From NCBI GenBank assembly GCA_965649765.1, contig OZ287754.1:37944001-38008000 (forward strand): a stretch of DNA of 64,000 nt. Direction: 5' to 3'. This document shows, piece by piece, positions 9,801 to 37,300 of this stretch. This stretch comes from Bispira polyomma. Lineage: Eukaryota. Both the position numbers and the translations under genes were made by a program. The notes below the pieces were generated by a model, which was not told where the DNA came from, did not search any database, and saw only the letters and a program-made list of their open reading frames with translations. Numbering within the stretch: position 1 is the first letter of the stretch; every line of letters starts with the position of its first letter.

Positions 9801-12800
9801 GGAATGGAAGTATCCCGGATCACAGGCAGATGGACGAGTTTGCTCTAAGGGCAAACACCAGAGATCACGTTCGAGAGGGAGGGATGGGATTATTCTAAAG
9901 TTTACATCCTAAGGTCCCTCCTAGAAGTAACCACGGCCGCCAACCACCGTATGGCTGGTTATGATGCCTAACTACAGACTGAACTTACACAAGCTAAGCC
10001 ACTTTTGCGCCAAAAGTCAGGACGGTACAACACCAATGATATTGTCAACTCTGATCCCCAACTTAGATGGACAAACGAGGGCTATGGCGGGGTAGCTGGT
10101 ATGAAAAGGTTTACATTTGACGATCTTACATTGCCCCAATGGGCAGCAGGTCAACTTTTTAATGTGTCCCAAGTTTAGGATCAAACCATTCTAAGGCAAA
10201 TGCTTGAGGTGGAGGAGGGGCGCCTTTACTGGGGGGATGCCACTCAATGGGCTCTAACCCAGATGGGTGTCTCGCAACTTACAGTCCTAAAAAGTCAGCA
10301 TATACACTTAGGTACAAATACACAGAAAGGCAAACTGGTATGCAAGTATTATAACCTCGGCAAATGCCTGCTTTGTGAAAATTATATAACCTTAGAAGAG
10401 GCCAATAAACCTGTCCTTGATCTGGCTGGTAACAAAGCACCTGGCCCTGATGGGCTTCCAGCTGAGTTTCATAAACAGTTTTGGAAACATATAGGCCATT
10501 ATGTCTGTCAAAGTTTTGCCCAGGCTTTTTAAAATGGCAAACTTTCTTCTAGCCAAAAACAAGGCATTCTAAAATTAATTCCAAAGAAAGATAAGGATCT
10601 TACTGATCTAAAATCATGGCGTCCACTTTCTGTATTAAATGCAGATTACTAAATTTTAGCTAAGGTTTTAAGTGGAAGATTGAAACATGGCCTAAAAGAA
10701 ATTATCAACCCTAACCAGATAGGATATATGGAAAATAGATTCTGTGGAGAAAACACAAGACTAATTTCTGATGTGATAGAATATTGCAAATTTCATAGAA
10801 AACCATGTATTTTACTTCTAATAGACTTTGAAAAGGCTTTTAACACTGTAAACTGGGATTTGCTGAGAAACTGTTTAAAATATTATGGTTTTGGTAAAAT
10901 ATTTCATAGATGGATATCCATCTTGTATTGTGAAACTGAAAGTTGTGTAACTAACAGTAGTTGTCAGTCCGCCTATTTCAGATTGTCTAGAGGTATCCGA
11001 CAAGGCTGTCCCATCAGTGCACTTTTATTTTTGTTGGTAGCGGAAGTTATTGCGATAATTCTTAGTGAGTCTTACTCTGTTAATGGATTAATATTTTCAG
11101 AAACGCACATTAAACTATGTCAATTGGTGGATGACAATGTTTTTAACTGATATGTCATCTGTTAAAAGTGCCCTTACTCTCTTTGAAGAATTTTACCGAT
11201 ATGCTGGCCTAAAACTGAATAAAAGCAAGACTGAAGCAATTATTATTGAGAATGACGGTACCTTAACAGAAGATCCCAGTTTGGACATAAGGTGGATAAA
11301 TGGTCCTTTCAAAGCATTAGGTACATGGTTCTCTGTTAACCATGAAGAAATGAAGATCTTGAATATAAATAATAAAATGGAAATAATCAAATCTGTTCTT
11401 AATGTTTGGAAAATAAGTGCCTAATGCATAAAGGTAAAAGAACTGTAGTCAAAGCTTTAGTCATTCCACATATATTACAGCTTGTTTCAGTTTGCCTTTT
11501 ACTAACAAGCAGTTGATAAACCTAGACAATCTGTTATTTGATTTTGTGTAGAATAATAAGAAATCACTTGTGTCTAAAAATACTTTAATTCAACCTGTAA
11601 GTAGTGGTGGGCTTAAAATGGTTTCTTCTATGTATGTAGTAAAAACTGCAAAAATTATGTGGATGAAAGATTTGTTGATAATACTAAAGCCAAGTGGAAA
11701 GTTCTAGCTGAAAATCTAATGGGTCTTAATAAATTTATGATTTTTAGAAAGTACTATTTTGAAACCATTAAACATAAACCATTCACTACCTTTTACAGAA
11801 ATATGTTATCCATTTGGTATGATTTTATTACAGTGGAACCCCAAACTATAGATGCCTTCTATAATGAAAATTTATTTCACAATGATTTATTTTGAATTGA
11901 TAACAAGGCTATAGCTCATCAATATACTGGCTGGGCAAATAGTGACATATTGGTTGTTTCTGAAAAAAAACAGATTTAGAAAGGAGATATAACTTAATCA
12001 TATGTGATATGAAATATAACAAAATTGTAATCTCAGTATATTCAAGGTTCAGAAAAATTCCAAAAACAAATACATTTGGTTCAACTTCTGGTAACAGTGT
12101 TCCTCAAAGATGCATTACTGATATCAGTAGTGTTAAGAACAGAGTTGTCTATAATTTTTTGGTTAAATCAGTATATAAAAATTTTCTATAATTTTTTGGT
12201 TAAATCAGTATATGAAATTCCATCAAATGAAAACAAATAGGTAGAATATTACCCCTTTTTAGAAGTCATACATTGGAAAAATATTTATCTACTGCCAGGA
12301 CACATATTTAGTAACCTTTCAGTTTAAAATATTACATAGAATTTTTACATGTAACTATAAATCTGCACAACTAAGCCATCCAGTTCAGGATGCAAACAAT
12401 ATCCAATATGTAACAGTTCCACTCTCCGGTAAATCCTTAACTTTATATCCAGTTCACTCCAATGAGTTCACCACAAAATGTATATAATAACCAGTTTATA
12501 TCCACTTGACACAGAAAGAAAGTGTTCCACAATATAGCAGTCCACATAGCATACTAACTCAACAAACTCTAGTATGTGGCCAGGCTTTCAACCCTTATAT
12601 ATACTAGGGATATAGAATGCTCTAGAAAGTGTGTAAACAACAATTATTTGAAGGCTACAGAAAGAAATGTAAACAAGTCAACATAAATCCAATAAAAACA
12701 TTACACAGAACCAGCTTCTAGACGCTTAGGGGTTTTCACCAAATCTATAAATAGATCACTCTAGCAGAGTGTAAGAAACATTAGTACTAACTAGACCAGT

Positions 12801-15800
12801 TCTCCACTGACATACAACAAGGTCCTTATACATAACACCTCCCCCCTTGAAGAAAAATTTTGGAAGCCAAGGGGTTACAAAATTTTACATTGCACCAAGT
12901 ATAAGAGAATATACATACTGATGTTATAGCATTTCTTAGATCACTGTATTTTAAGTTACATAAGTAATATCCATAAGTAAGCATCTAAGTTTTACAAATT
13001 TATTTTTGAGTTGTTAACAGACAAAATGACCTTTAACTACAACTTCTGGATAGAGCATCAGCACAAATCTTATCCTTTCCTTCAACATGCTCTATTTGGA
13101 AACTGTATTCTTAGAAAATCAAATTCCAATTCAATAATCGCCTCTTTTTGTATTTTAATTTGTGCAAGAATACTAAAGGGTTGTGATCTGTGTACACAAT
13201 AGGTTTTGATTATAAAAATATATAGATATGAAAGTGTTAATGGCCAAGATGAGGGCTAAATGTTTCTTTTCTATTGTAGAGTAATTCTTTTGATGTACAT
13301 TAAATTTTTTCAAAAAATTAGAAATCGGATGTTCAATATCTTCATCATCAGTCTGCAGTAAAATTACACCTGCCCCAACATTACTGGCAACCACAGCTAG
13401 CCGGAATGGTCTACTGAAGTCTAGAGCAGTTAGTACACGCTCCAAACAGAGAACATTTTTTTTATATTTTATGCATTTTTTTGGGAGCTTAGTCAGTGGA
13501 GCAGTGACATCTAAAAAATTTTACAAAATATTCTATAATAACCTGACATTCCCAAGAACCTCATTAAGCCCTAAGTACACAACCTTTGCTTTTACAAAGT
13601 CATTTTTTGATAAAATCACAGCAAGGTTGGCTTGCTTGAGCCGAAACAGAACTTGTTCAAGTCTTTTGAAATGTTCTTCCCAAGTATCACTAAAGATGAC
13701 AATACCATCCACATACACTGTAACTCCTTCTTAATTCCTTAAACATATATTCGTTAGTCTCTGAAATGTAGCTTGGAAATTTATCATTCCAAATGGCATC
13801 ACCTTGTACTGATACAGACCATCGGGAGTTACATGAATCGCTTTTACTCAAAACATTAACCTTTCTATAGTCTGTGCAATATCTGATAGAACCATCAGGC
13901 TTCGGGACCAAAACACAAGAAGATGCCCAACTACTTTGACTTGGTTCATTTATATCTTTGTCCGACATGTATTGGATTTCTTGTCTTAATTTTTTATGTT
14001 TGATTGGGTTTACACGATACGGGTGCTGTTTGGCATTGCCAACATCAACATCATGCATGAGTACATTGGTCCTGTTAGGGGCATCAGGAAATACTGACTT
14101 ATACATCATGAGTAACTCACTAAGTGGGATCCTCCTATCTGGAGATACATGATTCAGTTTGGTTTTCAAATCAACAATAATGTCTGAATAACTCAACCTG
14201 ATTTTACATTTAACTTTAACATCAAGAGTGTCAGCCCATGCTTCATACTCCTGATTGTTGTCATTTTCTACATTACAGTCAGTAGCCATGACAGGCTTTG
14301 TCACACCCCTTTCAAAGTATGGTTTTACCATGTTTACATAACACGGTTGGGTTGACTTCTTTCTGTCCGTGGTTTCAATGACAGAATCCAGATCACCTAC
14401 TCTCTTTAATTTGTATGGCCCATGCTATCTGGCCTGTAACATGTTCCCTTGGATAGGTAATAACACTAAAACCTTCTCTCCCGGTTTAAAACACGGTTTT
14501 GCGACCTTCTATTATAAAGTTTTTTCATTTTTGACTGAGAATGTTTCAAATTTTGTTATGCTAGCTCACAAGCCTTTTTTAGCCTGCTTCTAACCTTTGG
14601 GACATAATCTAACAGGTTTAGGCTCTCACAGTTCTCAGATAACCATTTTTTTCAACAACTCGAGAGGGACTAAAGCCTAAAGACTCTTGCACTGATTCCC
14701 AAACTGCAAACAATAATAAGTACATGCCAGTCTTTCGCATTGTCTAAGCAATATGTCCTAATCATATTTTTTAAATTGAAATGGAACCTTTCAAGTACAC
14801 CTTGTGGTTCTGGATGATAAGCAATAGATTCGATCTGTTTGGCACCTAGCTAAAACACAACTTGCTGAAATAATCCTGACATGAAATTTGACCCTTGATA
14901 TGACTGATCTCCTTTGGTAAGCCAATTAAAGTAAAGAAATTGACTAAAGCTTTCGAGATTTATAGGGCTGTCATGTTAGTCAAAGGTATGGCTTCAGGGA
15001 ATCTGGTTGAGACACACAAAATCGTTAAGCGATATTGGTTTCTGGATTAAGTCTTTGGTAAGGGGCCTACACAATCAATTATCACCTTGCTGAATGGTTC
15101 CACAAATCCTGCAATGCGTTTTAAAGGAGCTACTGGAATCCTTTGGTTTAGTATTTCTACAACTTGACAAATGTGACAGTTTTACAAAATTCTACCACAC
15201 AGCGCCGGATCTGAGGCCAGTAGAAATGCTTGGTAATTTTGACATAGGTTTTATTGATGTCTAAATGGCCACCCATTGGAGACTGTCACAAAATGGCTTC
15301 ATAAGGTTTATTCTTTAAGCTAGTTCTGCCTGGTGAATTCTTAGTTTTTAATTCTGGTCTATGGTATTCTGTATGAAGTCATTGTGGGTTTACTATGGTT
15401 TTGATCAGTATGGGCTGTGTGTTCATACGTCACTGCACACAGCATTTTAGTGTGGAATTAGTATCTTAAGTTTTAGTTTTTTGGAAGCCACACTTTTGGC
15501 AGCACATGTTTTGAAGCTCCAGTCTGTTGTTTGAAGGAAACAGCATTGAAGTTATTAGCTTAAGATCGTTTCAATTCACACTAAAAATTATATCTTAGTG
15601 TTACATCTATTCATATCACTGGTATCTGATTTATAATACCCACTTTTACATATAAATACACAATAAATACATAGTTTAACTTATGTTGTATTTGCATAAT
15701 GGTTGTGTGGTGTTATGCTTAATTTCTAGTGCTGTTTATTTATTTTCAGCTGGTTTTAATGTGGGGAACTTGGTTTCCATGTTGTGAAGATGCTGTTATA

Positions 15801-16180
15801 ATGGTGTTGTGGTTTTGATTATATGGATCATTAACGCTGAGCATTTTTATCTCACTGGAGATATGGTTGTAGTTGAATGATCATCAAAGCTGAGGATTTT
15901 CATCTCGCTGGAGATATTGCTGTGTTTGAATTATGGTGGTGCTAACCATCATTAAAGGTGGACAGTGGTGATGTTTCTATGGTGTTAGATGATGGTGTTT
16001 ATATGAAGCAAGCCGCTGTGTTTGTGTTCCTGACATGTTGACATTACAAGCTGGACATTGAATTACAGTGAATTTGAACATTACATTAAACATTGAACTG
16101 TTACATTTTATTATAAATATATTTCTTTGTGTGTTTTGGGTAGACATATGTGATATGTGTTGTGTCATTTGATTTATGTG

Positions 16181-16219
<39 letters not shown>

Positions 16220-16257
16220 TGTGGTAGTGTGTATATGTGAATGAGTGTCATTTGATT

Positions 16258-16334
<77 letters not shown>

Positions 16335-19300
16335 TGTGGTAGTGTGTATATGTGAATGAGGGATGTGTTTCATGTTCACTCTATTTTAAAGTGTATTAGC
16401 TCGTGTTCTGACAAAAATTCCATGAATTCAGAGTGTGTATCATTTACCATACAAGCCTCATTCCGGCCCTGTGACATTTGGCGAGCTTGCCAGGATATTT
16501 TTTGAGGCTTTGGTAAATGATAACATATATTGTTGATGGGCTATATTGTACACAATATATAAACTTTATTTTGGATAAAGTTTTTGGATTGTCATATTTT
16601 GGATTTTTTTTTTGCATTTGGAATATAATTTGTCGGCTATTTTTTGGGACATTCCTGTCGCTCAAATTGTTGTACTCCGGATTTGGTGGTTGTAATTTTG
16701 TTGGAAAGTTAAGGTTGTTATCAAGTTTTTAGTTTACATGGTCGGCATGTTGCTTTAACATATCCAGTGTACAGTTTAAAGTGGAAAGTACGCACAGGAT
16801 TTCTTTTCCGTTACTTACCACATACTGGATTGAATGGAACATTATATGATTCGTTGAGTTGCGTATTGAGTTACCACAAACTTTTTACTGTCGACTAGTT
16901 ACTGTGCGTGAACAGGCTGCAGTAGAAAGAATATTTACCCTTAAATTGTCCATTTTGTTACTCTTCAATGATTTTTTGAAGATTTTTTTAATCAGTCTCA
17001 TTCTTTTTAAATGACACACTGATCATATTTCCTCTACTTGGGTGTTATAATTTTATCTTCCATGTTTAAACATACTTGATTCAGTCTACTTTATAAATCA
17101 TATAGGGCAGTGCTGATTTGAGTGTAAGTTTCCATACATTTTTTGGCATTGAAGGTTCAAAGCATTGGCAGTGATTGACAAATTGGTCTCCAATCTTCCG
17201 TAGTACTTGGTGATTTACTTATTTTTTTTACATTGTGTTTGATTTGCAAAGACAATTGACAAGAAATAGAGGTTTAGCTCTTCAGTTCACATTTCTTGAT
17301 TGATAGTTTTGTCATTTGTAAATAGTTTTTGTTGTATATACCAGCATTTATTAGCAAGGTTCTTTTAGCAAAGGTTTCATTCTTAGTACTCTTGATAAGA
17401 TGGACGTTGATGAGCTCCAATGGCTTCTAGCTTTAGGGAAAGAGATTGGTTTGGAAGGGAAGGATGGGAGAAAAACAACGTCAACGTGATCTGTAGTTAA
17501 CAAAACTGAGGCTTGAAAGTAGTACAGCTAGTCAGTTAGATCAATGTACTTCAGGCAAAATGCAAGTTTAGTTTAAGCTAGCTAAACTTCCATATTTTGA
17601 TAAAAACAAAGACAGTATCGATGCATACTTAACACACTTTGAGAAGAATCCACACAGTTTTGAAGACGGATAAAGAAGAGTGGGCTATCTACCTAGCTAC
17701 ATTACTGAAGGTAAAGCTCTTGAGGTCTATTCTAGATTGTCAAGTGAAGAATCAAACAAATATGATGTCTTGAAGATGGCTTTACTCAGAGGCTACCAAT
17801 TAACAGAAGATGGTCTGAAGAAGAGGTTTCACACCAGTTGTCCTGAGGTTGGTGAGTCTTGTACACAGTTCATGGTGAGACTTGCTAGTAAACTTCACCG
17901 ATGAATAGATGCCACTAAAATTTCAAAAATGTTTGATGGGTTAGCTGCTTTGCTAATAAAAAAATAGTTCGCAAGTGTGTGTGACCAATGCAACTTTAAG
18001 AAAATATTTAAAGTAATAACACAGAGTTAGCAGAATTTGCTGAGAGGTACATAGATGCACATGACATGATATCTTGGAGAGCAGATTCTTTCAAGAAAAA
18101 GAAAAAAACACAGAGAAAGTGAAAATCCAAAAGACAAATGGGAAAAATGTACAGTTCTACTTGGTATAATGGAAAGAAGGTAAGTTGTAGTGGAAAGATA
18201 GTCTGGTAAGTATAGCAGAAGACAGTGAAACTATGGTTTGAGGAATTTATTTAAATTCTGTACATGTTAGTAAATCTATATACAGGTAGGTGTAAAATAG
18301 GTATAAATTATTAAAATACAAGGTAATTTTAAAATCACCCATTACATGACAACACAAGCAAAAGCAAGGTAGTAAATAATACAGAGGATAAAACCTCACA
18401 AGCATTAAGCAGCAAGCTGGGAAAACCAACGTCTGAGGACTAAGCATTTGCCTAGCATACAACAGTACACCTTTATAACAATCAGCCCCTAAGGCCAACG
18501 TCGATCCAACACTATTCAACACAATTATGCCAAATGACATTACATCATACCAATACTATTCAATACAATTATGCCCAATGACATTACATTCAACATTTTA
18601 AATCATACCAATATTTAATCGTTAACTAGTAAATTTCCTATTTAATCCGGACTTATAAGCCGTATTATGCCTGCGCTAGCAGCCTTAATTGGAGTTTTTG
18701 GGAACCCGGAACTTACAGCACCGACTCGCCTAGCAGTGAGACGTCCTACCTCACAGAGCATTTCCCCCCTGGTAGCCCACACCAGAGGGTAGGTTATGAG
18801 GAAGGACCTAACACCACACAGTTCCGAGTTCAAAAAACTCCCACAAATCCAACCAAATTTAAGTGATTTCCTATCTTACAAAGATTTTCAGCAGGGCCCT
18901 TTTGGGTCCGCAACCAGAGATCTTCTTAACATAGTATGTGCTTAGTACCAAAAGTGGCCATAGCTAAGAAATGAACAATGAACATTAACTTATGGTGTGG
19001 TTAAGGGGAGGTGGGTGGAAAATGTACGTGTGTGTACTGCTGAATCCTTTTCCAAAATGGAAGATATTAGGACAGGAATGCAGAATTTGGGAGGGAAGAC
19101 CCCTAATTGGCTGGCCAGTTCACGGTTGGATGAATCATGCTACAGTTGTCGAATTTGCCCCTAGGGCTTAAAGTAGTAATACATTTTCCTTTGGTTGAAC
19201 TGAAGTAGCAGACCCCTATTGGGTCGTGCTATGCACAGTTCTACTTGGTATAATGGAAAGAAGGTAAGTTGTAGTGGAAAGATAGTCTGGTAAGTATAGC

Positions 19301-22300
19301 AGAAGACAGTGAAACTATGGTTTGAGGAATTTATTTAAATTCTGTACATGTTAGTAAATCTATATACAGGTAGGTGTAAAATAGGTATAAATTATTAAAA
19401 TACAAGGTAATTTTAAAATCACCCAAGCCAAACTAGGAAGGAAGTTTAGGTATAGAGGAGGCGAAAGTGAGAGGGACAGCAGAAGTTGTTTGAGAATTCT
19501 GATGCAAATATGACCAGACTGCAGATGACCTCCAGAGGCCGTGCGCCATGATGTTTTGAAGTGACACGTTATTATTAAAGGCATATGTTGCCCCTGATCT
19601 TCTAAATGTGTGGAAACTATGTGATTTGGTGGGAATTCCCACATGTGTAAGTATTGAAGCTAGTGCAGAACGCACATGTGTTTCTACAATTGGATAGTGT
19701 GGGTAAGTACTACTGACGAAAAGTGGGGCATCAGGTGACAGAGGTCTAGATTTCAATAATGTCTGTATGGCCTTGACTGGACATAGTAAAACATTGTCCA
19801 GTAAGGGTATCTGTATAATGTGAAACTGTGATCTAATTTGTAAATTCTTTGCCCACTTCAAGATCAAGTGTGCACCTGGGTGGCCAAAGATTATATCTTT
19901 CCTTAGAAAGTGACGAGTTGGATCAAATTTGGATCTGGAATGAGGGACTATATTGGATATTCTCAAGAATCCAAAGAAAGCTAGCATGAAAATGGCCCTA
20001 TATAGAGGTGGGTCTCTTAAAATATCACAAGCTTTGGAGATCAGTAATAAGTGTTCAATGTGGAAAATTCCTTTAGGTGAAGGTCTAAATGGTGATGTAT
20101 GTGTCAAGCTTCTAGTAAACATAGACACTGTATTGTTTTCAAAAATTTTTGTATCCCAGTACAACTTCTTGGCCATATGTTTAATGGCTGCAAGATGGTT
20201 ATTAACCATGTTGGGTGACGCCCCTGTTTGTACCAAGTATTCTAGAAATGCAATCAATGAGTGTGTGGTAATTTCTTCTATTCCAGCATAGCAAGTAAAT
20301 GAGATGAAGGTTCTAAACTGGGTATTGTAAGTCTGTGTAGTCTTTGGACGCAAAGCACAGTCAATCCTCTGCCATGCTGAGTCTGTGAATCTTTGTGTGA
20401 TGTGGTTTGATCCTGAAATCATATATTTAAGTCTAGGTTAAAGTACTGGAGTGGAATGGTGTGCCACTTACAGGAATCCCTTAATATTTCCAACTGTCCC
20501 TTATGGGGGGGTTGCTCAGAAAAAAGTCTTGAAAGGAGGTCAGCAATTACATTGTCTTTACCTTTAATGTGCTGAATCTCGATTGTAATATCATGTACAG
20601 CCGAGATTAGCCAGATATTCCTTAAACATAAAGCAAGAAAATCGTCTTTTGTCTTATTGGACCTAACTACCAGGACAACGGACATGTTGTCACAATTCAT
20701 GATTATACGTCTATGACTCCACTGCTCACCCCAGACCCTTAAAGCTAATAGAATGTTAAGCATTTCGATATGCACGATAGATAAAGCCCTATTATAGATG
20801 TTGTATAATGGGGTAGCGAAAACCTCATTGGTGTAGATGGCCCCTAGGCCAGTGAGGCATGCATCAATAAAAACCTCGTCCTTATGCTTAGCAATTACCG
20901 GATCGATGAACGTAATACCATTATAGCGTGGTAGAAATTGTACGAACCATAATAAGTCAGCCTTCATGTCATGCGAAATTTTAAATCGTTTAGCTTGACT
21001 GTTATTCCGAAACGCCATAAGAAGTCTGTTTATAAACATTCGAGCAGGCTTTACACATTTATGGATGTAAAGCAATTTTCCCAATATTGATTGAAATTTA
21101 GTTCTAGATATCCAAACTTTGTTAACTATTTCTAAACAGAGGTTATATGTTTCCTGTATTTTTTCGGGAGTAATACTTATAGTGCCTGCCTGAATGTCGA
21201 TATCTATGCCAAGACAGGTGACTTTTGAACTTGGTTTTGAAATTTTTTCTGGGTTTAACGGAAAACCAAGTTTGGTAACCAGTTCATATAATTGGTTAAA
21301 AGCTTCTTCTGCTTCCGAGTCTGGAGAAACGCCTACATAATCGTCGATATAACAGAAGATCTTATGGTTGTGCTTCTCCATGGTGTGTGCTATAACGTCC
21401 GAGCAACGCTGAAAAGCAGCCGAGCCGTGGACCCAGCCGAACGCAACCGCCGGATCAACGTACTTATGGTCATCAAATTTGATTCCTAATTTCATGGCAT
21501 CGACTGGGTCCACCCTCAAATTTCTAAAAACGCGCGCGACGTCCAGTTTAAAGATACGTGGAGTGTGTGTTTTACGAATCTGTTCTACTATATCGTCTAT
21601 TGTGGGAAATTTTAAGGTGAAGTCCACTCCATCGAATTGTTTCCTATTGACATTGTCATTAAGTGATTCCCCACTGGGGTGAGACAAGTTTAAAATTACA
21701 CGCCTTTTGGAATTGTCCTTAGGTCTGGTGAGCAGTGGAGAACAGTGAAATAATTCATCCTTAATGTCTAAACTAGGTCCTAACATGGCCCCACACTGTT
21801 TCTCTTTTTTTAAATATTGCCTTATGTGGTCCTTAAATTGAAGTGCAGAGTGGTGATTGGTGGTATCCTTGACCTTTAAATCCTTTGGACAAGTAAGTGA
21901 GAGGGGAAAACCAAACTTGATATATTGTAGTAAAAGTTCATCTGGGTAATTTGAAAGGACTTCCTCCCATGCTTTGGTGTTAAGACCTGATACCAGGGGG
22001 ATCCTTGCTCCCTTATAATTGGGACATCCCGTATCCCTAATGGTTTGTGCTATTTCAGACATTTCCTTAATTGAAGTAATGTGTATGGGGGCCCTGTCAG
22101 GTCCTATAAAACTAAACTTGGTTTCTGAGATTGCCAAGAAACCCTTAGTTTTGTTGGGGAAATTAATATCCTTATCCACTATGGTGGCACTTGTGGTAGT
22201 TTGTGAGAAATGTCCAAAAGTTTGGAAGAAGAGATCGCACGACGCTACTTTACCTTTATGGCAGGTTTGAACCTCCATTGGTCTGTCATTACTGACAACA

Positions 22301-25300
22301 CATGTTGTATTTACATTTATGTCTAACAACATTTCGTCAATGATATTTGTTACATATTCTGTATAACCTTTTTTGAAATTGTTTTTGCAATACATTTCTT
22401 TTTGAAAATCATGCCAAGCATCCTTAGCTTTACATTTGTCATCATCAGTAACTGTTACAACCTTGTTGCTGTTTTGAAAATCATCCCTAAAATTAGCCAA
22501 AGCTATTTGAGTTGTGACTATGCTCGTCACTGACATTACCCCAGTTGGTGGGTTCTTACATCTGTAGAAATTTGTCCCAAAATCCTCATCCCATGAGGTG
22601 TAAAAACCAGAAACATGTGGCAGCTCAGACTGCACAAAAACCACAGGCATTCCTTGTGTAATGTGAGGCATGCAAAACAACCAATTAGTAGTAGAGATGG
22701 TAACTTTTACTTTTGTCTCATTTGGGGTACCATACTTGGCATTAACACTGCTGGCATTACATAAATCAGCATTAACTGTAAAATTTCTTTTATTCTCTCT
22801 TTCTAAATGTTCACCAATATTTCTGTTTCCCCAAAATACAGGGACTTCGCTGTGTGAATTATCTAGACCATTTATCTTAATATCACCTTTATTTTTAGAA
22901 AAGCCCCCAAATTTGGTGAATTGACCATAACTGTCATCTCTGTACATTCTAGTACTGGTACTCGAGTCCAGTACACTGGCCCTGATATATTGCTGAACAT
23001 TCCATTTCTTGACCCCAATAGGTTCACTATTATTAACCTTCTTGTCGATACTAACTGTTAAGCTAGGATCACACATTGCCGTTTTAGCAGTGCATGAATT
23101 TTTTATCTTTCCAAACTTGTTAGGCAATCTAATGACATTATAATTTTTAACTGCAATATGGCTATCATCAATGCTCTTTTTGTCAGTACTGATTGACAAG
23201 CTAGGTTTACACATTTCCGGTTTAACAGTGTGTACATTTTTTACATTTTCACTTTCATGTGACAATACATTCACATTAACATTTTTAGGTTTGTTTGAAG
23301 AAATATACGAATTATTACTTTCCATCTTATTTAACAATGAAAGCATATGCTTATCTGCTTTAGTTATGTCTTGGTCTTCATAATTCTGTTTTACATATAC
23401 TTCTAACTTATTCTTACTTTCACTGTTATGACAAGATGGCCCTAGTCCTGGTAGTTGGTCAATGTCCTAGTGGGTAGAAGAAGATCCTGATTCTGCCTGT
23501 TTAGCTGAGTTGGACTTATAACACTTAAATTCTGGGTGGTATACGTCTTTGTGAAGCACGGTAGCACAGTGCCAACACACATGCTTATACTGGCTGTGAT
23601 CTGCTTTATGCGAACACTTTCCGGAGTTATACAGTTTGCAAATAACCTTGGCTGTTGATCCGACGTGAGTAGATGAAGCATTGGTGGTTTTAGAATTCAC
23701 CATAGCTAGCTGTGACGCACTGAGCCTGTTGAGGGCCCACTGCGTTGTGTCCCCCCAGGACAGTCTACCTTCTTCAATCTCGGTCATGTTTAACGCCCAG
23801 GCCGTTCGGACGACCTCCCATGGTAGTGACGCGGCGTCCCTGAGGGATAGAACGACCTGCTGTATAATTTCTCTCGAGACCAGAGGGTCCGTGACCTGGA
23901 GAGCATTTGCCAACTGGCCAGATGCCCACTGAGGAAGCGACAAGTCATCATAAGGTGGTCGTTTACGCGAAGAAGTACCCGTCCACCCCTCGTTTGCCCA
24001 CCTAGTCTTCGGGTTGCTGTTCGGTATGTCTGTAGTATTAAATCTCCCCGACTTCTGTCTGAGAGCAGCCTTACCTTGGGTAAATACGGCCTGGGCCTGG
24101 AGGTTGTACTCGGCTAGCCTCTCGTTGACCCTTGCCTGTATGTCTGGCAACGTCTTCAGGATGTCTGCTTTGGGAACGATTGCATCAGTGGTGTAGTCGA
24201 CCCGGTTAAGTGAACTGGCTGTTGACGTGTGTGGCTGAGCCGTGGTACTGATCGACAGCGGTGCCTGTGGATACGAGTGACTAGGATTCGTCATGGAACC
24301 TGGAGCTGAGAGGTGTGGCTGAGCCGTGATGTCGTTACCCAACGCGACCTGGTGAGCGGAACGTGTGGGATTTAGGCAAGGAGATGCTGACTGAGCAGTC
24401 GAGTCTCTAGCTTCTACTCGATCCAACCTATGGGTGAGTAGCGCGTTAGATTCCTCAAGCCGCCTTAGTATGGTTAGCATTTCATTGGCCTGGTGTGATG
24501 ATCCGGTGGGGTTCGGAAGCCGAGATCGGGTAGATGGAGACACGTGGTCGGCCTCAGCTTGATCAAAGAGGCTACTGGGGTTAGTTATGATACTGTCGTC
24601 AATACAAGTATTCTTACCCAATTTGCTTTTCTTTGCTGTACCTTTCTTTGTTGCCTTACTGCCTTCAGTAGCTGGGGTCTTCTTAGTGTGTCTTAATTTC
24701 CTTTCAGACGTCCTCCCCATTTTACCACAATATATATATCACAAACACATAAAAAGTAGAGTATATTAAAAACAAACAATAGAATAAAAAACTAAAATAC
24801 TAAAAGCAATTGGATTCAGCAGAGCCTTCATAAACTTGGCTGTATAAAATGTATGTGTGTGTACTGCTGAATCCTTTTCCAAAATGGAAGATATTAGGAC
24901 AGGAATGCAGAATTTGGGAGGGAAGACCCCTAATTGGCTGGCCAGTTCACGGTTGGATGAATCATGCTACAGTTGTCGAATTTGCCCCTAGGGCTTAAAG
25001 TAGTAATACATTTTCCTTTGGTTGAACTGAAGTAGCAGACCCCTATTGGGTCGTGCTATGCAAAAGACGAGAGAGACAGAGATTATAAAAAGAAAATTGA
25101 CGAAAAGAAAACGCCAAGGAATTGTTTTTTTATGTGGGAAGCAAGGTCACTTTACAAAGGATTGTTTTCTTAAGAAAAAAACTTATTGGTGCTTTGTGTT
25201 CTGAACATGCAGGTAGTTCTAGTAGTTCCTCGGAAGATGAAGACAGTGTAGTTTCAGTTCAATCTTTTGAGTCACATTCTAAATCTCATGTTGGTAGGAG

Positions 25301-28300
25301 GGTTAGGCAGAACGAGAATTTGTCTTGTACTCATGACTTGGTAGCATTTGATTGTAGTTCTGGTTCCAAAGTTTTTGCCAGTAACGTTGAGCCTACCAAA
25401 AGTCTTTGTGCTTGTCCAATGCCAAATATTACTGAGGTTACATTGAATTGTGGGCACAAAATCCATGTCTTGAGTTCATGTATAAATAAGTTGCCTCCCA
25501 ATATGCCAGTTTTCAAAGGTTTTGTTGGTGACAAAGTTGTTGATGTATTGAGGGACACAGGATGTTCAGGAGTTGTAGTCAAGAAGGCACTTGTTAACCA
25601 GAAACAGTATAGTGGAAAAGTCCAGCGCTGTGCTTTCATTGATGGTTCAGTGCATACATTCCCCATAGCAGAAAATTATCTTGACACACTATACTACAAG
25701 GGTTATACTTGTGCAGTTGTGATATAGAGTCCTTTGAATCCTTTGATAGTTGAAAGTATTTCTGGTGTTGATGATAGTTCCTTAGCTTTGGTTGATTTTT
25801 CTAGATTGCAAAGAGAACAACAGTCCAAAAGTGTTTCTGTTTCTCAGGCTGTTATTACTCGTAGTCAAAAACAACATCAAACTGTTAGTAAAACTAAACC
25901 TTTGAAGGTAATGCCTAGTGAGGTTGAAGGTGTTAAAAGAAAGGACTTGATGTCTTTGCAATGTGAAGATTCGACTCTGAAGAAATGTTTTATTCAGGCA
26001 AAACAAAAGGTGAAACAGAAGAGTGGTCAAAATAACATGTCTTGGTTTAAGATTGAAGATGGCCTATTGATGAGGTATTATCAGTCTCAATAGGTTAAAT
26101 TTGGTAAAAAGATTAGTCAAGTTGTGTTGCCAAAACAACTTTGTCTTCAAGTCATGAAAATTGCTCATGGTGGTTTGTTTGATGGTCATTTTTTGATCTC
26201 GCAAGACATTAGGTCGAGTGTATGCAAATTTTGATTGGCCCGGAATCTATGGAGATGTCACTAGATTTTGCCAGTCGTGTGAGCAGACTAGTCCTGAAGT
26301 CAAGTTAACATATGAGTATGTTATGGATGTAAAAAAACGTTTGGAAGATACTCTAGAAATTGCAAAGGGTAACTTAGGTTCCAAAAGTCAGTCCTAAAAG
26401 CATTACTATGACAAGAGGGCAAAGAATAGTAAATTTTCTGTTAGAGATAAGGTCATCCTATTACTTTCAACAAGTGAGAATAAGTTACCAATGCAATGGA
26501 AGGGGCCATTTGAGGTGAAAGAAAAAATTGGTTTAAATGATAATAGAATATGTTTTGATAAATCCTAGGTTGAGTGTGAGGCAAAAACAGCAGATTGATA
26601 ATTTGTCAGATGAATTTTAGAATATTTTTACTGATGTTCTAAAAGGTACAAACTTGTTGGAACATTCTATTCCCTTGACAAGTGATAATCCAGTGTGTTG
26701 TAAACCATACCCGGTTCCCCTTTCAATGAGGCATGTTATAAAAGATGAAGTTTGCAAGATGTTGGAACTTGGTGTCATAGAGCCATTTACTGGTAACTAT
26801 GCATCACCAATTGTTCTAGTGAATAAAAAGGATGAATCCATACGTTTTTGCATTGACTATAGGAAGCTGAATTGTGTTTGTTATTTTGATCACATGCCTA
26901 CTGCTTTACCAGAATGCTTGTACTCTAAACTCTCTTCTGATTCTGTCTTTTCAAAGCTAGATTTGAGCAAGGGTTATTGGCAAATACCATTTAAACTAGA
27001 CGATCGTGATAAACCACATTCATCACTCCAGGAAATGGCATGTTCAGATTCAAAGTTGTTCCATTTGGTCTGGTTACGTCTGGTGCAAGCTGCCACAGGT
27101 TGATGCATATTTTGTAGATGATATTTTGGCTCACACTAAAGACTGGTCAGGTCATTTGATGGTGTTGAGGAAATTGTTTGAAGTTCTAAGAGAAGCAAAC
27201 CTAGCTGTGCGTCCTTCAAAGTGTATGTTTGGGTTTGAGAAGGTAGAATTTCTAGGCCATATGGTTGGTCAAAATAAAGTGAATCCTTGTGCAAAGAAGG
27301 TTAAGAAAATCAAAAAGGCAGTTCATCCACAGAATAAGAAGCAGCTCAGATCTTTTCTGGGTCTCATTGGGTACTATAGAAGGTTTATCCCAAATTTTTG
27401 CTGCTAAGGCTTCTCCACTAACAGATCTTACGACGAAGGGGTGTCCAAATATATTAGTTTGGGAGAGTATCCATCAAGAAGCTTTTGAACAGCTGAAATC
27501 TGCTTTGATGACTAAGCCAATTCTGAAATTACCTGTTGAAGACAAACAGTTTATTGTTCAAACTGATACTTCTGCTACAGTAATTGGTGAGGTATTGCTT
27601 CAGGAACATGATATAATCTTATTCCCAATATGCTATATCAGCAGAAAGTTACAGAAACAAGAAGAGCATTACTCAGCCATAGAAAAGGAGTGTCTTGTGA
27701 TTATCTGGGCAATTCAAAAATTGCAGATGTACCTGTATGGTAAAAAGTTTGTTTTACAGACAGATCACCAGCCATTGGTTTGTCTAACTACAACCAAAGT
27801 TGCAAATAGTAGACTCATGAGATGTAGCCATATCACTTCACTATCATGTCACTGAAAATGTTTTTGGTGATTAAATGAGTAGATTAGAATGTCTAAGTGT
27901 ATGGGTAAAGCATAAAACTTATGAGTGATTTGAAGATGAAAACATGGTTTTCACTTCAAAAGGGGGGCTTATGTCACAAAGTGACTTCATAAGGTTTATT
28001 CTTTAAGCTAGTTCTGCCTAGGGTCGTTATGGTTTTTGGATTCTTACTTTTTAATTCTGGTCTATGGTGTTCTGTATGAAGTCATTGTGGGTTTACTATG
28101 ATTTTGATCAGTATGGGGTGTGTGTTCATGCGTCACTGAACAAAGCATTTTAGTGTGGAATTAGTATCTTGGGTTTTAGTTTGTTTGAAGCCACACTTTT
28201 GGCAGCACATGTTTTGAAGCTCCAGACTGTTGTTTGAAGGAAACTTCCAGCATTAAAGGTATTACCTTAAGATTGTTTCAATTCACACTAACATGGTGTT

Positions 28301-31300
28301 TGATTAACATTACACACTGTTACATATATATACACAATAAATACATAGTTAACATAGTTTAACTTATGTTGTATTTGCATAATGGTTGTGTGGTGTTATG
28401 CTTAATTTCTAAGTGCTGTTTAATTATTTTCACCTGGTTTTAATGTGGGGAACTTGGTTTTCATGTTGTGATGATGCTGTTGTAATGGTGGTGTGGTTTT
28501 GATTGTATGGATCATTAATGCTGAGCATTTTCATCTCACTGGAGATATGGTAGTAGTTGAATGCTCATCAATGCTGAGGATTTTCATCTCGCTGGAGATA
28601 TTGCTGTGTTTGAATTATGGTGGTGCTGACCGTCATTAAAGGTGGAGAGTGTTATATGAAGCAAGCCACTGTGTTTGGGTTGACATTACAAGCTGGACAT
28701 TAAATTACAGTGAATTTGAACATTACATTCAGCATTGAAATGCTGCATTTTGTTGATAAATATATTTCTTTGTGTGTTTTGGGTAGACATATGTGATATG
28801 TGTTGTGTCATTTGATTGATGTGCATGTATATATATATATATGTGGTGTGGTTGTGTATATATATGTAAATGAGGGATGTGTTTGTGTTTTGAAACATGC
28901 ATATATATATATATATATTTCATGATCACTCTATTTTAAAGTGTATTATAAAGACCGGAAGTGCGCATCGACCACAAAAGCCGTCAATGCGCAATTCGTA
29001 ACCGTACTTTATCTGGGAGAATAGATCACGCATAAATAGTTCCGTCAGTAGCTACAAAAATAGTTAACAGTGAGTTGGAAATATCTCAGTGCCCTACCCA
29101 AGTAAACTTGTATATGTGGTGTAACACAGGAAAATAACAAGAAAGGAGGTTTTGGGGAGATTAGCTTTAATTTTACTATGTTATCACTAATAATTATTTA
29201 CATACTGTGTAGTAAGGGGCCACCTTAGCCCCAAGAGTTTAGGAGAAGTTAAGAGTTTAAGGTGACCTTAGCCTGAGGACAACAGGCCAAAGTGACCAAA
29301 GGGATTTTTAAAATTTAAGGGGGGGGGGCCCTAGCTTGAAAGTTAGGGCTCCCTAAGATTGAGTTTAAGGTTAAGGGTAGCCCCAGCTTGGAAGTCAGGG
29401 TTACCAAAGATTGAAATTTTTAAGGTTGAATTTAGGGGTACCCTAACTTGAAGTTAGGGTACCCTTAGAATGAGTTTAAATGTAAGAAAAATGGTAACCT
29501 TAGATTTTATTTGAGGTTGCCAAAAGAGATTTAGTAAAGATGTAAAAGGATTAAATTAGTATAAGGTAAGGTGGCCCCAAAATATTTATATTTAAGCATT
29601 ATTATATTTTATTTGTATATAATGTATGTAAATAAAGCCCCCAAAAAGGGTAAAATCGAAGTTAAAAACCATGGTACTAGCTAATAGACTAAAAACTGTG
29701 CTGCTCACTAATAAAGTCCATGAGAGTAGCAAAAACTCACTAGACCTTAAACCCCTAGCATATACAATTACCATGGCTTACAGAGAACATGCATACAGAC
29801 ATGAGCAAAATATAAATCGAGTAGCTGTTGTCTTCCAGGAGGGCAGTGCTTGCTTGCATAGAGTTCATTCCTGACTGAGCCACAAGAGATCCATGAATCC
29901 CGTATGCCTGAAACTACATGCTTACAGTTCAACATGTGATCACAAAGCTACCAAATGCACCTGCACACAACATGATGTGCAATGCATTGTAACGTTATAC
30001 TAGCAACCACACCGGTTGCGAAATACAAACATTTTACAAGTCCAGTCCTCGTTGTAACGAGGAACAACATTATTAGTTATACTTTACATGCTACTATAAC
30101 AACAAAAAGGATGCCACTTCACATACTGTATACGTATAAATCATGCTGCCTGACGCAGGATATTTGACAACATTATCAATTTGATATACAACAAAGGGAA
30201 CACCCTGAAGACAATAAAGTAACGTACAATTGATAACAACAAAAGGAGACGCAACCTCAGCAGCAAGCAGCTACCTACAAGAAAGTGTTGGCCCCTAAGG
30301 GCCCTGGTGTTACCCAGAAAATATGGGAGATAAGTCACCTGAGGCCCCAGAAGGCCCCCAAGGGCGAGGAACTGTGAAGGCCAGCAGTAATGCATAACTC
30401 GTGGGCCCACAGCCCCGAGCCCCCACCCCCCTGCGCCAAGGTGTAAAGTGAGACTTCAGGAACCCCAGGGACTGCATGCAGCACTCCAGGGACGGACGCA
30501 TAGCTGAAAACTACCGAGGAAGTAGTAGGGGCAAGTGGGTGGGTAATGTAAAATATTAAAGATGGCGTTGTTGCCTACATGACTTCAAAAGTATAAGTGA
30601 GGATTCTAGCTAAAAAGCGGGAAACAGAGGTTAATTAGTACACAAATAGCCAATTAGGAGAGGGTTTAAAGGGCATGAACCCAAGGAGAGAAAATACTAG
30701 TAGCACTGAACTTGCTATCCCCTACGGTGCTACCCCGCACAGTGCCCTACCCAAGTAAACTTGTATATGTGGTGTAACACAGGAAAATAACAAGAAAGGA
30801 GGTTTTGGGGAGATTAGCTTTAATTTTACTATGTTATCACTAATAATTATTTACATACTGTGTAGTAAGGGGCCACCTTAGCCCCAAGAGTTTAGGAGAA
30901 GTTAAGAGTTTAAGGTGACCTTAGCCTGAGGACAACAGGCCAAAGTGACCAAAGGGATTTTTAAAATTTAAGGGGGGGGGCCCTAGCTTGAAAGTTAGGG
31001 CTCCCTAAGATTGAGTTTAAGGTTAAGGGTAGCCCCAACTTGGAAGTCAGGGTTACCAAAGATTGAAATTTTTAAGGTTGAATTTAGGGGTACCCTAACT
31101 TGAAGTTAGGGTACCCTTAGAATGAGTTTAAATTTAAGAAAAATGGTAACCTTAGATTTTATTTGAGGTTGCCAAAAGAGATTTAGTAAAGATGTAAAAG
31201 GATTAAATTAGTATAAGGTAAGGTGGCCCCAAAATATTTATATTTAAGCATTATTATATTTTATTTGTATATAATGTATGTAAATAAAGCCCCAAAGCCC

Positions 31301-34300
31301 AACTAGGAAGTAGTAGAAGGGGCAAGGAGGGCCTTGAAGGTGAGGGCGACTTGGTCAGATGCATTGTGATTCTGTACAATATATTTCCACACACAATCAG
31401 ACGTCCAAGTGCCATGGCTCTGGATATCTTGAATTGGGACATTATTGTTGAAGGCCCAGGTGGCACCTGAACGCCTGAAGGTGTGGAAAGAAATGTTAGA
31501 TTGCTGGAGGCCAAGACGTCTCAAAATTTGGGTGAGATTTTGCCTAGCTTGGGTGTCAATCATTGGAGACCATTTATGGTGTTTTTTAAACTGAAAGAGA
31601 GGAGAATTTTTGTGTCCAGGAGTAATAGCCAGCAAGGCCCTTGTGGCAGCCACCGGACAGAGACTAGAGCCACTTAGGCTCGGTATTTTAATAACTTTTG
31701 CTACATTTTTTGACTGCATTGTTTTAGACCACTTTATTATGAGGTGGAGGCCAGGGGAGGCAAAAAGTACGTCCCCCCGGGCCAATTGGACTAGTGGAGA
31801 GAATTGAGAGACAGCATGTGGAAGTAAGTTAGATATTCTAAGAAAAGAAAAGAAGGCAATGAGGTACAGAGCCTTGAAGATCTGCCCCATGTACATGCTG
31901 TCACAGATTTGAGTAATTTGGAGCAAGAGGGGAATGTCAATAATAGCGTTAATTTTAGCCCTGAAGGGGCTATTGAGTGTAAGAGCTTTTTGGTAATACT
32001 TAATTCTAGGATCTGCAAATGCAGAGACGTCAAGGCCATAGAGGGCCAATTTAGCTTTAACTGCCGAAAGGTAGTTTGCAATGGAGGGGGAAGAGACCTG
32101 ATTAACCACTAATACTTCTAAGAAAGCCAATATAATAAGGGGGGAGATATTTTGAGGCCTGACCTGAGCAAAACTACAATAGGCCAAGAATATCCTAAAC
32201 ATATTTGTATAGGCCCTTTCAGTGGCTGGTCTAAAGGCCTGATGGGCTCTGTATGAGGCTTGTGTAGCAATCTTTCTTAGCTTGGAAGGTACATCTGCAA
32301 TTAGATAGACCAATCTATTTCTAACATTGTGTCTTTTACTGTTACCCATTTGGGATTCGGTACCAGTTGTAGTAACTTGTCCTTATTACTGGCCGTGATC
32401 TGCCATCTGGAGAGGAGATCAGCCACTGTATTAAGTCTACCTAAAATGTGAATGGTTTTGAGACTGATGTCATGGGAGGCTACGGCCATGAAGATGTTTC
32501 TGGCAATAGCTGCCAAAGTGAGGTCTTTAGTTTTGCCTGAATTTAGGATAGTGACCACGGCAGCATTGTCGCATTGCAATATTAGCCTCTTACCTGCCCA
32601 GGCTGACTTCCATAGCCTAATGGCAACTAGGATGTTTAACATTTCCAGATGAACTATCGTGAAATCTAGGTAGCCTAGAGGAATTTGGAATTGGTATACT
32701 TCATCATTACAACGGCCTCCCAACCCTTGGAGGCACGCATCCAACTGAATACAATCGGTAGTGGGTTTGTGTTCAAAGAAGGCTTTTCCATTAAATGTTG
32801 GTAAAAAATTTTTAAACCAATTTACATCCTGATGAAACTCAGGTGTGAGTTTTACTTTTTGATCCGAGCCTACAGATCTTAGGACGTCAAGCATTCGGTT
32901 TAAGAAAGCACGTGAAACTCGAACACATTTGGATACATATAACAATTTACCTAGCAGTGACTGCAACTCCCTCTTACTGCAGCAGTGTCTTAATTGCCAG
33001 TCTTGCACAAGTGTGTTTATTTCTAGTAGCTTTTTATCTGGCAATGAGATTGTCAAGTCATTTGTGTTAACTAAGACCCCCAGACACGTTACTGACGTGC
33101 TGGGGTGAACAAGTTTCTTGTGACTAATCGCAAAGCCTAGTTCCTGGAGTAAGTTTAGCAATATATCAAATGAACGTTTACTTTCTATGACGTCACCATA
33201 GCCGATTACGTCGTCGATATAATTGGTGACGTCATGTCCGTGACGTTTCATGATGTACCTGACGGCGTCACTTAATCGCTGAAAAATTGCGCTCCCGTGC
33301 CGAAAACCAAATGGGAGGCAAGAGTCGACATAGTATTTGTCTAATTTCAAGCCTAGTAGATTGTAATCGGCTGGATCCATTTTCACGTGACGAAATGCCC
33401 GACTTACGTCAATTTTATATAGGAGCGTTCCACGTCCCATGCGACAGATTTTGTTTGTAATTGTGTCAATTGTGGGAAGGGTTAATGCAAACGCAGTACC
33501 GAGATACTTATCCTTGACTACAGCCGAGTTCACAGAGTTGCCATGAGGAAAGCTTAAATCTATGATAACGCGCCTGTGTGCGGCACCTGGTTTTTCCCTA
33601 GTCATAAAGGGAGAAATATGGAGGTTTTTTATGGGGGAGTTGTTTATCCCAGTAGTCAGTCAAGTACCTTTCCCATACATCTGGGTTCAACTCAGATTTC
33701 AATTGAACTTGTGCCCCCATATAATTTGGGTAGTTGTCCTTCTTAATGTGAGTGTGTAATTCTAACAGAGACTTATCCGACTTTACTCGTTTATCCGTTT
33801 GGGGAACTCGGAGGTCATTTAGCGGAATAAACCCATACTTATCTGTAGTTTGAGTATCCCATTGCTGGAACTGAGGCTGGTTGGAAGCCTGTTTTATAAG
33901 TTCCCTGTTTTTCGATTTAGTTTGTAGCTCTAGGTCATATTTGTCTGATTTTATTCCCCCAGTAGCTCGAGAGAGTCTTTTAAAACCTTGACCTTGGTTA
34001 CAAGTATCTGGTAAATGTGTGACAGAGTTGTCACTAGTGTGCATATAATGGTCATTGTCACTCAACGGGGAAAACCTATTGTGAGTGGAAACGGGCCATT
34101 TGCCCTGAATGTCTAATTTTGTGATTTCCAGCTTTTGGCCAAATTGATCACCTTTTGTTGGAGGGAGTTTACCCATTTTTGACATTACATTATGCCTCTG
34201 TACACTTGTGAAAGGGGAAGCATCTTTTGTGAAAGTTTTAACACTCACTCTGTGGCCCCGTTCATGCTTTGTGGACCCCTCTGAAATTTGGTTGTTATTT

Positions 34301-37300
34301 ACACATGGTGAACATTTAACGTGGTGACTTTGCCACCTCTGAGTGACATTGGCACTTTGTACAGAAAACTTTATGGCAGCAGACCTGGAGGGAGCCTTTC
34401 TTTTAACCACATCAGCATAAGATCTATTTACAAATTTGGCCCAATCTGCCCTCCAATGTGTAGTGCCAGTATTACATTTAAGACTATTATACACGGTTCT
34501 ACTAGGACAACCTTTAGAAATATTTACAACTTTTTGTGCAAGTTTTTTCTTGACCACCTCTTGTGTGGAGGAAACATGGGGTGGCACTGCATCACTGCAG
34601 TGCCTTACTCGTTTTTTAACGGATATTTTTTACAGTCTTTTGCAGGGTGGGGGTAAGACCTCCCATTTTGAAAGCATTGGTTACACACATGACTATATGA
34701 CACACCTTTGAATTCGTGATCCCCTTTTTGGGGGCAAGTACCCCTCTGGAAGTACCTACATGGGATGGACTTCTCATGACTTTTCCTGGTGTTGGTTTGA
34801 TAATTACTACTTGCAGTGTGGCTGACAACCCTTTGGGCATGAGCCCGTCTAATCCTGTCCAACTTGTGGGCATCTCCCCAGGTTACCTTACCCTCTTCCA
34901 TTTTACAGAGTACAACGGCATGGCTAGCCTTAGCCGAAGTCCAGGAAAATTCATGAGCGTCCTCCATGAGGTCAGTGAGATAGTCCAACATTTGGTTTTT
35001 AACGTCTAAATTACTTTCATCTCTAGCTATGCTGGCAAAACCAGAGACCCACTGGGCCATTGACGCGTCATACGTAACTCGTGTTTTGTTTTGTCCCCCT
35101 AGTATAACGTTCTGAGGCCAAGCCACCTTATTCTTCACCCACAGAGTGTCGGGACCCCCTCTTTGAGATTTTGACGTACCTGACTCGTTAATGGACACCA
35201 ATTCCTTAAGACGTGAATCCACTGCAGTCTGTAGGGAGTCGGATGTACGCAGTGTGTGTAGCGTCGGGACCAGTAGCTCAGAAGTGGTTTGGTCCGCCTG
35301 TCTAGGTTGGGCTGCACTCCCCGGGCTCGACGCCGTCAAAGCCTGGGCTCCATGTGAACTGCGATAAACTTGCTGCTCAACTTGGGTCATACGCCCACTT
35401 AATGCTTTGAGTTCAGTCAAAATTTGTAAATTTACGTCGGCAGCAGTTACACCATCGCCAGTCACAGAGTTCTGCTGGGAGGTTCCCACACCGGTATGCA
35501 TTTTACAGTTTTCGTCAACGGGCTTAACATGACTAGTATCACACTTGTGACAGTAATATTGTTTCCTTGGGGCCATAGCCTCTGAATAATATAAGAACTC
35601 GTGGCTTTGATACCTGCAACTATACTAAAGGAACTGTAACGCTATAATCTGATTTGAATTATGTAATCAGGCAAATAGCCGTGAATTGGATGCAATATAA
35701 TTGATTTGACCACGTTCCTTTACCACCGCTCAAACGAGCATATAATCGCAGGACTCAAAGTAGAGTAAAACACAGGAATCCAGCACAAGCACTGCAGATC
35801 AGTTCCTCCTTAGTGTGTAGCACCACTTAGTGAATCATTTGTTGCATTTCTTGTTTCCATCACACAGATAATAAAATCAGTGAAGTAAAAATAAAACACA
35901 TAAAAGTAAAATAATGTAAAATATTAAAGATGGCGTTGTTGCCTACATGACTTCAAAAGTATAAGTGAGGATTCTAGCTAAAAAGCGGGAAACAGAGGTT
36001 AATTAGTACACAAATAGCCAATTAGGAGAGGGTTTAAAGGGCATGAACCCAAGGAGAGAAAATACTAGTAGCACTGAACTTGCTATCACCTACGGTGCTA
36101 CCCCGCATATTATTTGCTTTAAAATATATTATTGTCAGTCTTTATAATAGAAATAAAGTACACGGGCTTGTACTTTATTGGCGAATCAAGGACAGCCTTC
36201 CAGCATAATGGACTCGGGCCTACCGGCCCTCGTATATTCGCCAATAAAGTACTCGCCCTTGAACTTTATTTCTACATTAATTCAGAGTGTGTATCATTTA
36301 CTGTAGGAGCCTCATTCTGGCCCTGTGACAAAGACCCATGAGCTAGCCTGAATATATCATCTTGGTACATTATTGGTACTACCATCTGATGTAGTATTGA
36401 CCAGTTCTCAGATGTAAGGACATTTTGCAGCCTCCACTTTTGCATAAGCACACCATTTTTGTGTGCCTAAAATTATGTGAAGGACTTCATATTGAAACCA
36501 TTTTAGATAGGAAACTTAGATAGTTTTAAAACATATTCCAAAGATGCATTGCCAATGGCCATCATTCAATTCTATATTTAAATCTTCATGCCATATTCTT
36601 TTCGATTCCATTTGAAGCAGAGATAATCAGTTCTTTCCAGAACTCATTTGATGTCATATTACTTTAATATTTACACCATTGTATCCCCAATTTAGAAATT
36701 TTTGAAACTTAAGAGTTTTCTCAAAAAAGATAAGTCAGTAAGAGGATTTCGTTTTTAAAATTCTTTTCATCCAAGACAGTTTTAAAGAGTAAATGAAATT
36801 TTCCAAATTAACCATTCTCAGTCCGCCTTCTTGATAATCTTGTGTAAGGTAGATACGTTTGATTTTGTCTGGTTTATCTCCCCACAGGAAGAAAAACAAT
36901 AGTTTGTTAATGTCTTAAATAAATTTTTTATTTGGTGATGAAATAACTGAAAACAGATGATTAAATTTAGAAAGAATGAAAGTTTTGATAATTGTGATTT
37001 TTCCAAGAGGAGTCAAGTTCCTTTTTTTCTAATTAATTGGCAGTTTCTTTGACCTTTCTAAAGCAATTGTGTAGTTTGTATTACCTATTTTTGCTAAATC
37101 CACTGAAAATATTATTCCCAACAGGTCAAAATGAGTAGTACCCCAATCCAATTTGAATTCTTCTAGATCAACTGTTATTCCCATACTTTCAATATTTTGA
37201 TTAATTAGATAGACTAAAATTTGACCACATATAAGAAACAGATATGGGACCATGGGGTCCTCTTTCAATTTTTATGAATTCAGACTTTATGCCAACTTGT

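Follow-up and report, generated by a model that had tools for sequence, protein, structure and literature searches.

The window, by which we mean the whole 64,000-nt stretch of Bispira polyomma DNA analysed (OZ287754.1, positions 37,944,001-38,008,000, forward strand), contains two adjoining, related retroelements, named here element A and element B; all positions below are window coordinates. Element A lies on the (-) strand and is bounded by split direct repeats. Repeat A1 (24846..25062, 217 nt) forms its 5' end and is 99.5% identical to A2 (19019..19235), and B1 (19231..19425, 195 nt) is 99.5% identical to B2 (18147..18341), which forms its 3' end, giving the Ngaro-type order A1 ... B1 A2 B2.

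Three ORFs are found on the (-) strand of element A in the order gag, RT/RNase H and tyrosine recombinase (YR). The gag ORF (23467..24720) encodes 417 aa with a cysteine/histidine, zinc-finger-like C-terminus, ends in TAG and matched no Pfam family. [quoted passage not shown] The YR ORF (19433..20437; PF00589, E 5.2e-07; PF02899, E 1.6e-06) lies in the -1 frame relative to pol and overlaps it by 19 nt; the best-folding 150-nt window of the element (19890-19740, -, z -3.9) is located inside this ORF. RVT_1, RVT_3 and Phage_integrase were the only domains detected with Pfam, which revealed neither a DDE integrase nor a protease domain in the element, nor a methyltransferase in pol at E 0.1, and no SGNH hydrolase ORF was seen.

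In the available sections of PMC9210276, and of PMC13003380 quoting Poulter and Butler (2015), Ngaro elements are described with the layout A1-gag-RT/RH-YR-B1-A2-B2, without a methyltransferase and with YR overlapping RT/RH briefly in the -1 frame; the split-repeat pattern is also attributed to PAT-like and VIPER elements in the corresponding part of PMC6681497. Between 72 and 84% of the words of element A were present in three sequencing runs of one organism (two samples, one study), and its family appeared as single contigs at a depth of ~600-760 in both runs of one sample; this share of words and this depth point to a young, high-copy family. Element A is, by its repeat layout and domains, a young, high-copy Ngaro-type tyrosine-recombinase retrotransposon, an assignment made beside an RT/RH tree that has no named Ngaro, PAT-like or VIPER reference.

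Element B (29087-36107, -) is a second Ngaro-type element, whose pol lies in the -1 frame relative to gag and is broken by a deletion of ~60 codons near 33630. Its gag ends in TTA AAA AAC GAG TAA, and the heptamer A AAA AAC in this sequence (34617-34611, -), which we take to be a frameshift motif, is followed after a 6-nt spacer by a perfect 9-bp hairpin (whole site 34617-34583) with a z-score of -4.6 at 40 nt and rank 5/145 among 60-nt windows. A matching KKR start was detected in 3 of the 23 long Pols of the B clade versus none of the 50 Pols of the A clade. The gag-pol junction of element B is thus a candidate for -1 frameshifting, and Gag and Pol of the related B clade appear to be fused by recoding, which makes a Gag-Pol fusion more likely a priori in element A as well.

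The junctions are lost or damaged in three relics in the window (C, D and E). Decayed relatives were observed as an A-type gag at 9485-10367 (+), interrupted at 10367 by LINE-like DNA that codes for RT; as an A-type pol plus YR at 37900-40746 (+), in which the end of pol has a deletion; and, at 47180-48163 (-), as a B-type gag whose junction is damaged. In addition, the window holds a 936-codon open frame (58350-61160, -) across a 63-nt tandem array of at least 25 copies, whose OspE match in Pfam is probably a low-complexity artefact, and a duplicated stretch of ~1 kb (15284-16370 and 27972-28918, 81% identity) with TA microsatellites.

A single gag-pol frame interrupted by a conserved stop

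Translation of 24720-20416 (-) revealed that gag and pol of element A form a single frame of 1433 codons (24720-20419) with one internal stop, the gag TAG at 23469-23467, and that 40 sense codons separate this stop from the first in-frame ATG of pol at 23346, bearing out the original prediction on both points. The sequence at the stop reads CAC TAG GAC ATT GAC CAA CTA CCA GGA CTA GGG CCA. The open bridge (23347..23466) contains two out-of-frame AUGs (23396 and 23381), and a second in-frame ATG follows at 23325. The remaining two frames of these 120 nt have 4 and 7 stops, and the probability of 40 open codons arising by chance, as estimated from composition, is 0.04-0.08.

A stop within an otherwise continuous frame could have arisen in this copy only, as a nonsense mutation of a fused gag-pol gene, or gag and pol could share their frame here by accident, which coincidence by itself would bring about with a probability of 1 in 3. 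A search for Gag homologues detected 50 proteins of 241-452 aa, of which 35 have an intact terminal zinc-finger motif; these 35 stop at about the same place as element A, instead of carrying a sense codon there. When a looser pattern was used, the tail past the zinc finger measured 11-19 aa in 40 of the 41 homologues scored, compared with 17 aa in element A. Fused Gag-Pol proteins were found neither among 1622 candidates of 731-2085 aa, which is a weak test, nor among the 120 of 201 Pol matches listed, the longest of these being 968 aa.

The family contigs, assembled from three host runs (two samples, one study), were compared with element A, and 40 of the 647 differences were listed. The TAG is absent from these 40, whereas 23343 and 23300, two nearby positions with near-100% differences, are included; none of the 40 creates a stop. 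None of the seven indels listed falls in the bridge, the disruption that the original prediction had named as evidence against it, and the variable N-terminus of pol shows one listed indel, of 6 nt. One contig, which belongs to a diverged family and reaches depths of 217 and 241 in the two runs from a single sample, has an alignment that extends exactly to the T of the TAG; its short side of 23 nt makes it a hint only. Likewise a hint on a short side, the joint of a lower-depth relative (23001-23577) leaves out the junction entirely, so that at 80% identity not every relative retains the context of the stop. In a marine metagenome run (share 0.08) 12 contigs were aligned, one of which, of 93 nt, spans the stop without gaps but with 17 differences; it was left out of the evidence. 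The TAG is, as judged from the homologous Gags and the family contigs, a conserved gag end and not private to this copy, and a private mutation or an accident of frame is largely refuted and very improbable.

The residues before the stop were also compared. Lys is the last residue in 21 of the 35 Gags with an intact end, versus a background of 9.6%, and 6 of the 14 clusters formed at 60% identity end wholly or mainly in Lys; in element A the last codon is for His, not Lys. According to the available part of PMC3159437, readthrough is favoured by adenines before the stop. Only 4 of 41 homologues have a tail whose final dipeptide would allow a -1 slippery site.

Relatives, predicted structure 3' of the stop and the start of Pol

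When metagenome, viral and genome contigs were searched for loci by means of the Gag profile, no relatives were returned. With the Pol profile, four loci were obtained from metagenome contigs (L001-L004) and none from viral or genome contigs; the ESM Atlas returned hypothetical clusters only, with low recognition. In a quick, midpoint-rooted RT/RH tree of 73 rows, which carries no direction of change, element A, element B and L001/L002 fall in three groups. L003 and L004 lack a gag junction. L001 was dropped, as its gag is internally deleted; its gag remnant, one TGA (729-731) and pol share a frame, and a second gag-end-like reading is present in another frame. Repeated CxxC...CxxC motifs were observed in the Pol N-terminal regions of L001 (732-2200) and L002 (3010-4650) and are missing in elements A and B.

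L002 is distant from element A (27% identity in Gag, 39% in Pol) and belongs to a separate RT clade; its gag and pol, joined as gag-AAA TGA GAT-pol, share one frame across a bridge of 17 open codons. For element A and L002 both to combine a shared frame with an open bridge, the joint chance is 0.001-0.002, a post hoc value for two cases. A 12-bp stem begins 12 nt past this TGA, with z-scores of -1.4 to -1.9 and rank 28/177 among windows, which is unremarkable.

In element A, the original prediction had placed a short UGAC..UUGUCA stem 5 nt past the UAG. This stem was rejected, since the windows of 60-141 nt at the stop fold worse than their shuffles in four cases out of four (z +1.35 to +1.97); the 40-nt window gave z +0.71, and no stable hairpin was found by ViennaRNA, whose model does not include pseudoknots, in the first 40-120 nt past the TAG. 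At 150 nt, a long stem of 23 bp (9 + 14 bp) is predicted instead. Its 5' arm (23415..23439, -) begins 27 nt past the stop and its 3' arm is at 23322..23345 (-), with 23439-23431 paired to 23330-23322 (9 bp) and 23428-23415 to 23345-23332 (14 bp), at pair probabilities of 0.81-1.0. Among the 518 windows taken over the coding span, this helix is the longest (median 9 bp, next 19 bp), no shuffle out of 500 reached even 20 bp, and its window ranks 2/173 by energy z-score. The majority of the family differs at 23343, with loss of the top 3 of the 23 pairs and a change from -29.1 to -23.7 kcal/mol. A repeat search that ignored G-U pairs detected only a 12-nt part of the stem (rank 17/34), and Rfam gave no match at E 1 in 23200-23600.

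The 3' arm overlaps the in-frame pol AUGs at 23346 and 23325, and in element A (23346) and L002 (L002:3061) alike, the predicted stem has the first in-frame AUG of pol at the top of its 3' arm.

This position of the AUG counts in favour of a start of pol at its own AUG (23346 or 23325), through reinitiation after gag, an internal promoter or a spliced RNA whose first exon is non-coding; that gag and pol share a frame would then be coincidental or a remnant, and access to the AUG would be governed by the stem. The contexts of the AUGs are also in line with such a start, as the first AUG past the stop in L002 has a good context (AGC ATG G) and lies in frame, the majority base of the family at +4 of the AUG at 23346 is G, and the AUG at 23325 reads AAG ATG G. 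Moreover, a minor promoter at the junction of Tca2 is mentioned in the accessible portion of PMC2194720. An own start of pol predicts, on the other hand, neither the open in-frame bridges of two elements as distant as A and L002 nor the Lys bias before the stop, and both out-of-frame AUGs of the bridge lie upstream of 23346. The Pol N-termini called in relatives are mutually dissimilar by inspection of the 120 of 201 matches listed, and the N-terminal 289 aa of the Pol of element A have no relative among 1.84 billion proteins. A Gly-Leu motif near the Pol N-termini (5/50 versus a 2% background) was too weak for use. On balance, initiation of pol at its own AUG, with all that this reading entails, is unlikely.

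Candidate splicing at the recombinase and at the gag stop

Poulter and Butler (2015), in a quotation in the accessible part of PMC13003380, guessed that the recombinase arises through frameshifting. In element A, a candidate phase-1 splice donor, AAG|GTAAGG (24069..24077, -, with the cut at 24074), is found within gag, where it encodes Gly216-Lys217; it scores best among the 85 GT sites of gag and the 5' end. G216 and K217 are invariant in 32 of 32 aligned Gags, and conserved in 45 of 50 by pattern. A candidate phase-1 acceptor, TTTCAG|G (20413..20418, -), lies directly past the pol stop and ranks 15/181 among YAG sites by an ad hoc score. A YAG|N, likewise a candidate acceptor in phase 1, is present at the matching place in element B (32295), L002 (6325-6327), L003 (~985) and relic D (~39890); element B has a phase-1 donor at 35179, and the donor GT is lost in relic C. 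In L003, the YR frame opens only past the pol stop, and therefore a frameshift cannot explain YR there. None of the 15 joints listed, of 65, connects this donor to this acceptor, and no spliced read was seen. YR is probably made as a Gag-YR fusion by splicing from gag codon 216 to the acceptor past the pol stop.

Element A probably splices for its recombinase anyway, and the TAG of gag may itself serve as a 3' splice acceptor (TCTTCTTCTACCCACTAG|G), and a phase-0 donor in gag would then join a truncated Gag to Pol with removal of the stop. The site ranks 1/181 among the YAG sites of the element by an ad hoc pyrimidine score, and gag contains three phase-0 donor-like sites with 7 of 9 matches (23700, 23646 and 23580). 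The score is a crude one, however, since the likelier YR acceptors rank only 15/181 and 6/150 and that of element B falls outside the top 12/140, and the strongest donor, at 24074, is in phase 1, with a stop two codons past the TAG acceptor. The phase-0 sites lie on residues that are not invariant in the 32 Gags, the Lys/Arg ends of most homologous Gags break the pyrimidine tract, and the stop of L002 is a TGA preceded by purines. GT..AG ends on the strand of the element were detected at the TAG in none of the 15 joints listed of the 65. Splicing at the TAG is accordingly quite improbable, more so than an own start of pol.

Proposed products of element A and known recoding systems

Programmed readthrough of the UAG of element A, giving a Gag-Pol protein, is the best reading of these data and a fairly likely one; the original prediction of a readthrough candidate holds in that it is the best supported, on the basis of sequence and predicted structure. 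Most ribosomes on the full-length RNA would halt at the gag UAG and release Gag, whereas in a minority a near-cognate tRNA would read the UAG, and these ribosomes would cross the 40-codon bridge to produce a Gag-Pol of 1433 aa. The 23-bp stem probably raises the level of readthrough, masks the first two pol AUGs, or both, and the recombinase would probably be translated from the spliced RNA described above.

A broader reading, somewhat less probable than its opposite when taken as a whole, is that Ngaro-type elements follow a three-product plan resembling that of retroviruses and served by one RNA, consisting of Gag, a recoded Gag-Pol and a spliced fusion of the Gag N-terminus to the recombinase. 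The type of recoding would be switched between related clades: those of element A and L002 would use UAG/UGA readthrough, the B clade -1 frameshifting. In the A clade, the long stem at 27 nt would be an undescribed signal that also hides the pol AUGs.

The route by which tyrosine-recombinase retrotransposons produce their RT is unaddressed in the literature covered. No gag-pol readthrough or slippery site in DIRS/Ngaro elements was found in the open literature, a scope lying outside the founding papers of Goodwin, Poulter and Butler, and the available parts of PMC3783388, PMC6681497, PMC8547959, PMC3266345, PMC7192593, PMC12440569, PMC12477816 and PMC13517186 hold nothing on gag-pol recoding in them. 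The absence of an earlier description is limited to main texts, and the supplements of PMC9210276, which concern ORF overlaps, may bear on it. As the window holds a readthrough-type and a frameshift-type junction side by side in two related, adjoining elements, the question of RT production becomes testable. If readthrough is confirmed, another order of retroelements would gain gag-pol readthrough, a Gag-Pol fusion would be implied in protease-free elements, a readthrough stem with an unusual spacer would be added to those known, and ORF-based annotation would be seen to trim the starts of Pol and YR in such families.

Gag-pol readthrough is already known in other retroelements, and our data suggest its candidate extension to a tyrosine-recombinase retrotransposon. 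The gammaretroviral type had been proposed for this junction, a label that is not supported by the present results. As in Moloney murine leukaemia virus (type III), gag and pol of element A are in frame across UAG-G and the product would be a Gag-Pol. The type III hexamers given in the accessible text of PMC13517186 are UAGGGV, UAGGUA or UAGGAU, whereas UAGGAC of element A is outside the type I-III hexamers listed there, one base away from UAGGAU. Furthermore, the viral signal is a compact pseudoknot past an 8-nt purine-rich spacer, no such compact structure was found at 8 nt in element A with a folding model that does not include pseudoknots, and in the pol of the latter no protease or integrase domain was detected.

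The predicted stem can also be compared with the extended 3' signals of alphaviruses, tobraviruses and Drosophila kelch, as they are presented in the available part of PMC3159437, with which it shares a long stem (10-14 bp or longer) that closes a long loop of ~70 nt and extends over ~145 nt 3' of the stop. In those signals the stop is UGA-C and the spacer measures 8-12 nt, whereas element A has UAG-GAC, a spacer of 27 nt, outside this range, and a stem about twice as long.

In Tca2 of Candida albicans, a copia element of the type gag-UGA-pol, gag and pol are also parted by one in-frame stop, although Tca2 is an LTR element with a DDE integrase, unlike element A. The Tca2 junction alone gave no readthrough in yeast reporters, according to the accessible portion of PMC2194720, which is a caution for element A.

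Finally, element A resembles the Ngaro-like retrotransposons (order DIRS) in its repeat and ORF layout, its missing methyltransferase and the short -1 overlap of YR. It differs from them in that no SGNH hydrolase ORF was seen and in YR sequence signals that point to splicing rather than frameshifting. In the Xenopus Ngaro-like families gag and pol overlap, as reported in the available sections of PMC9210276, whereas in element A they constitute one frame split by a stop.
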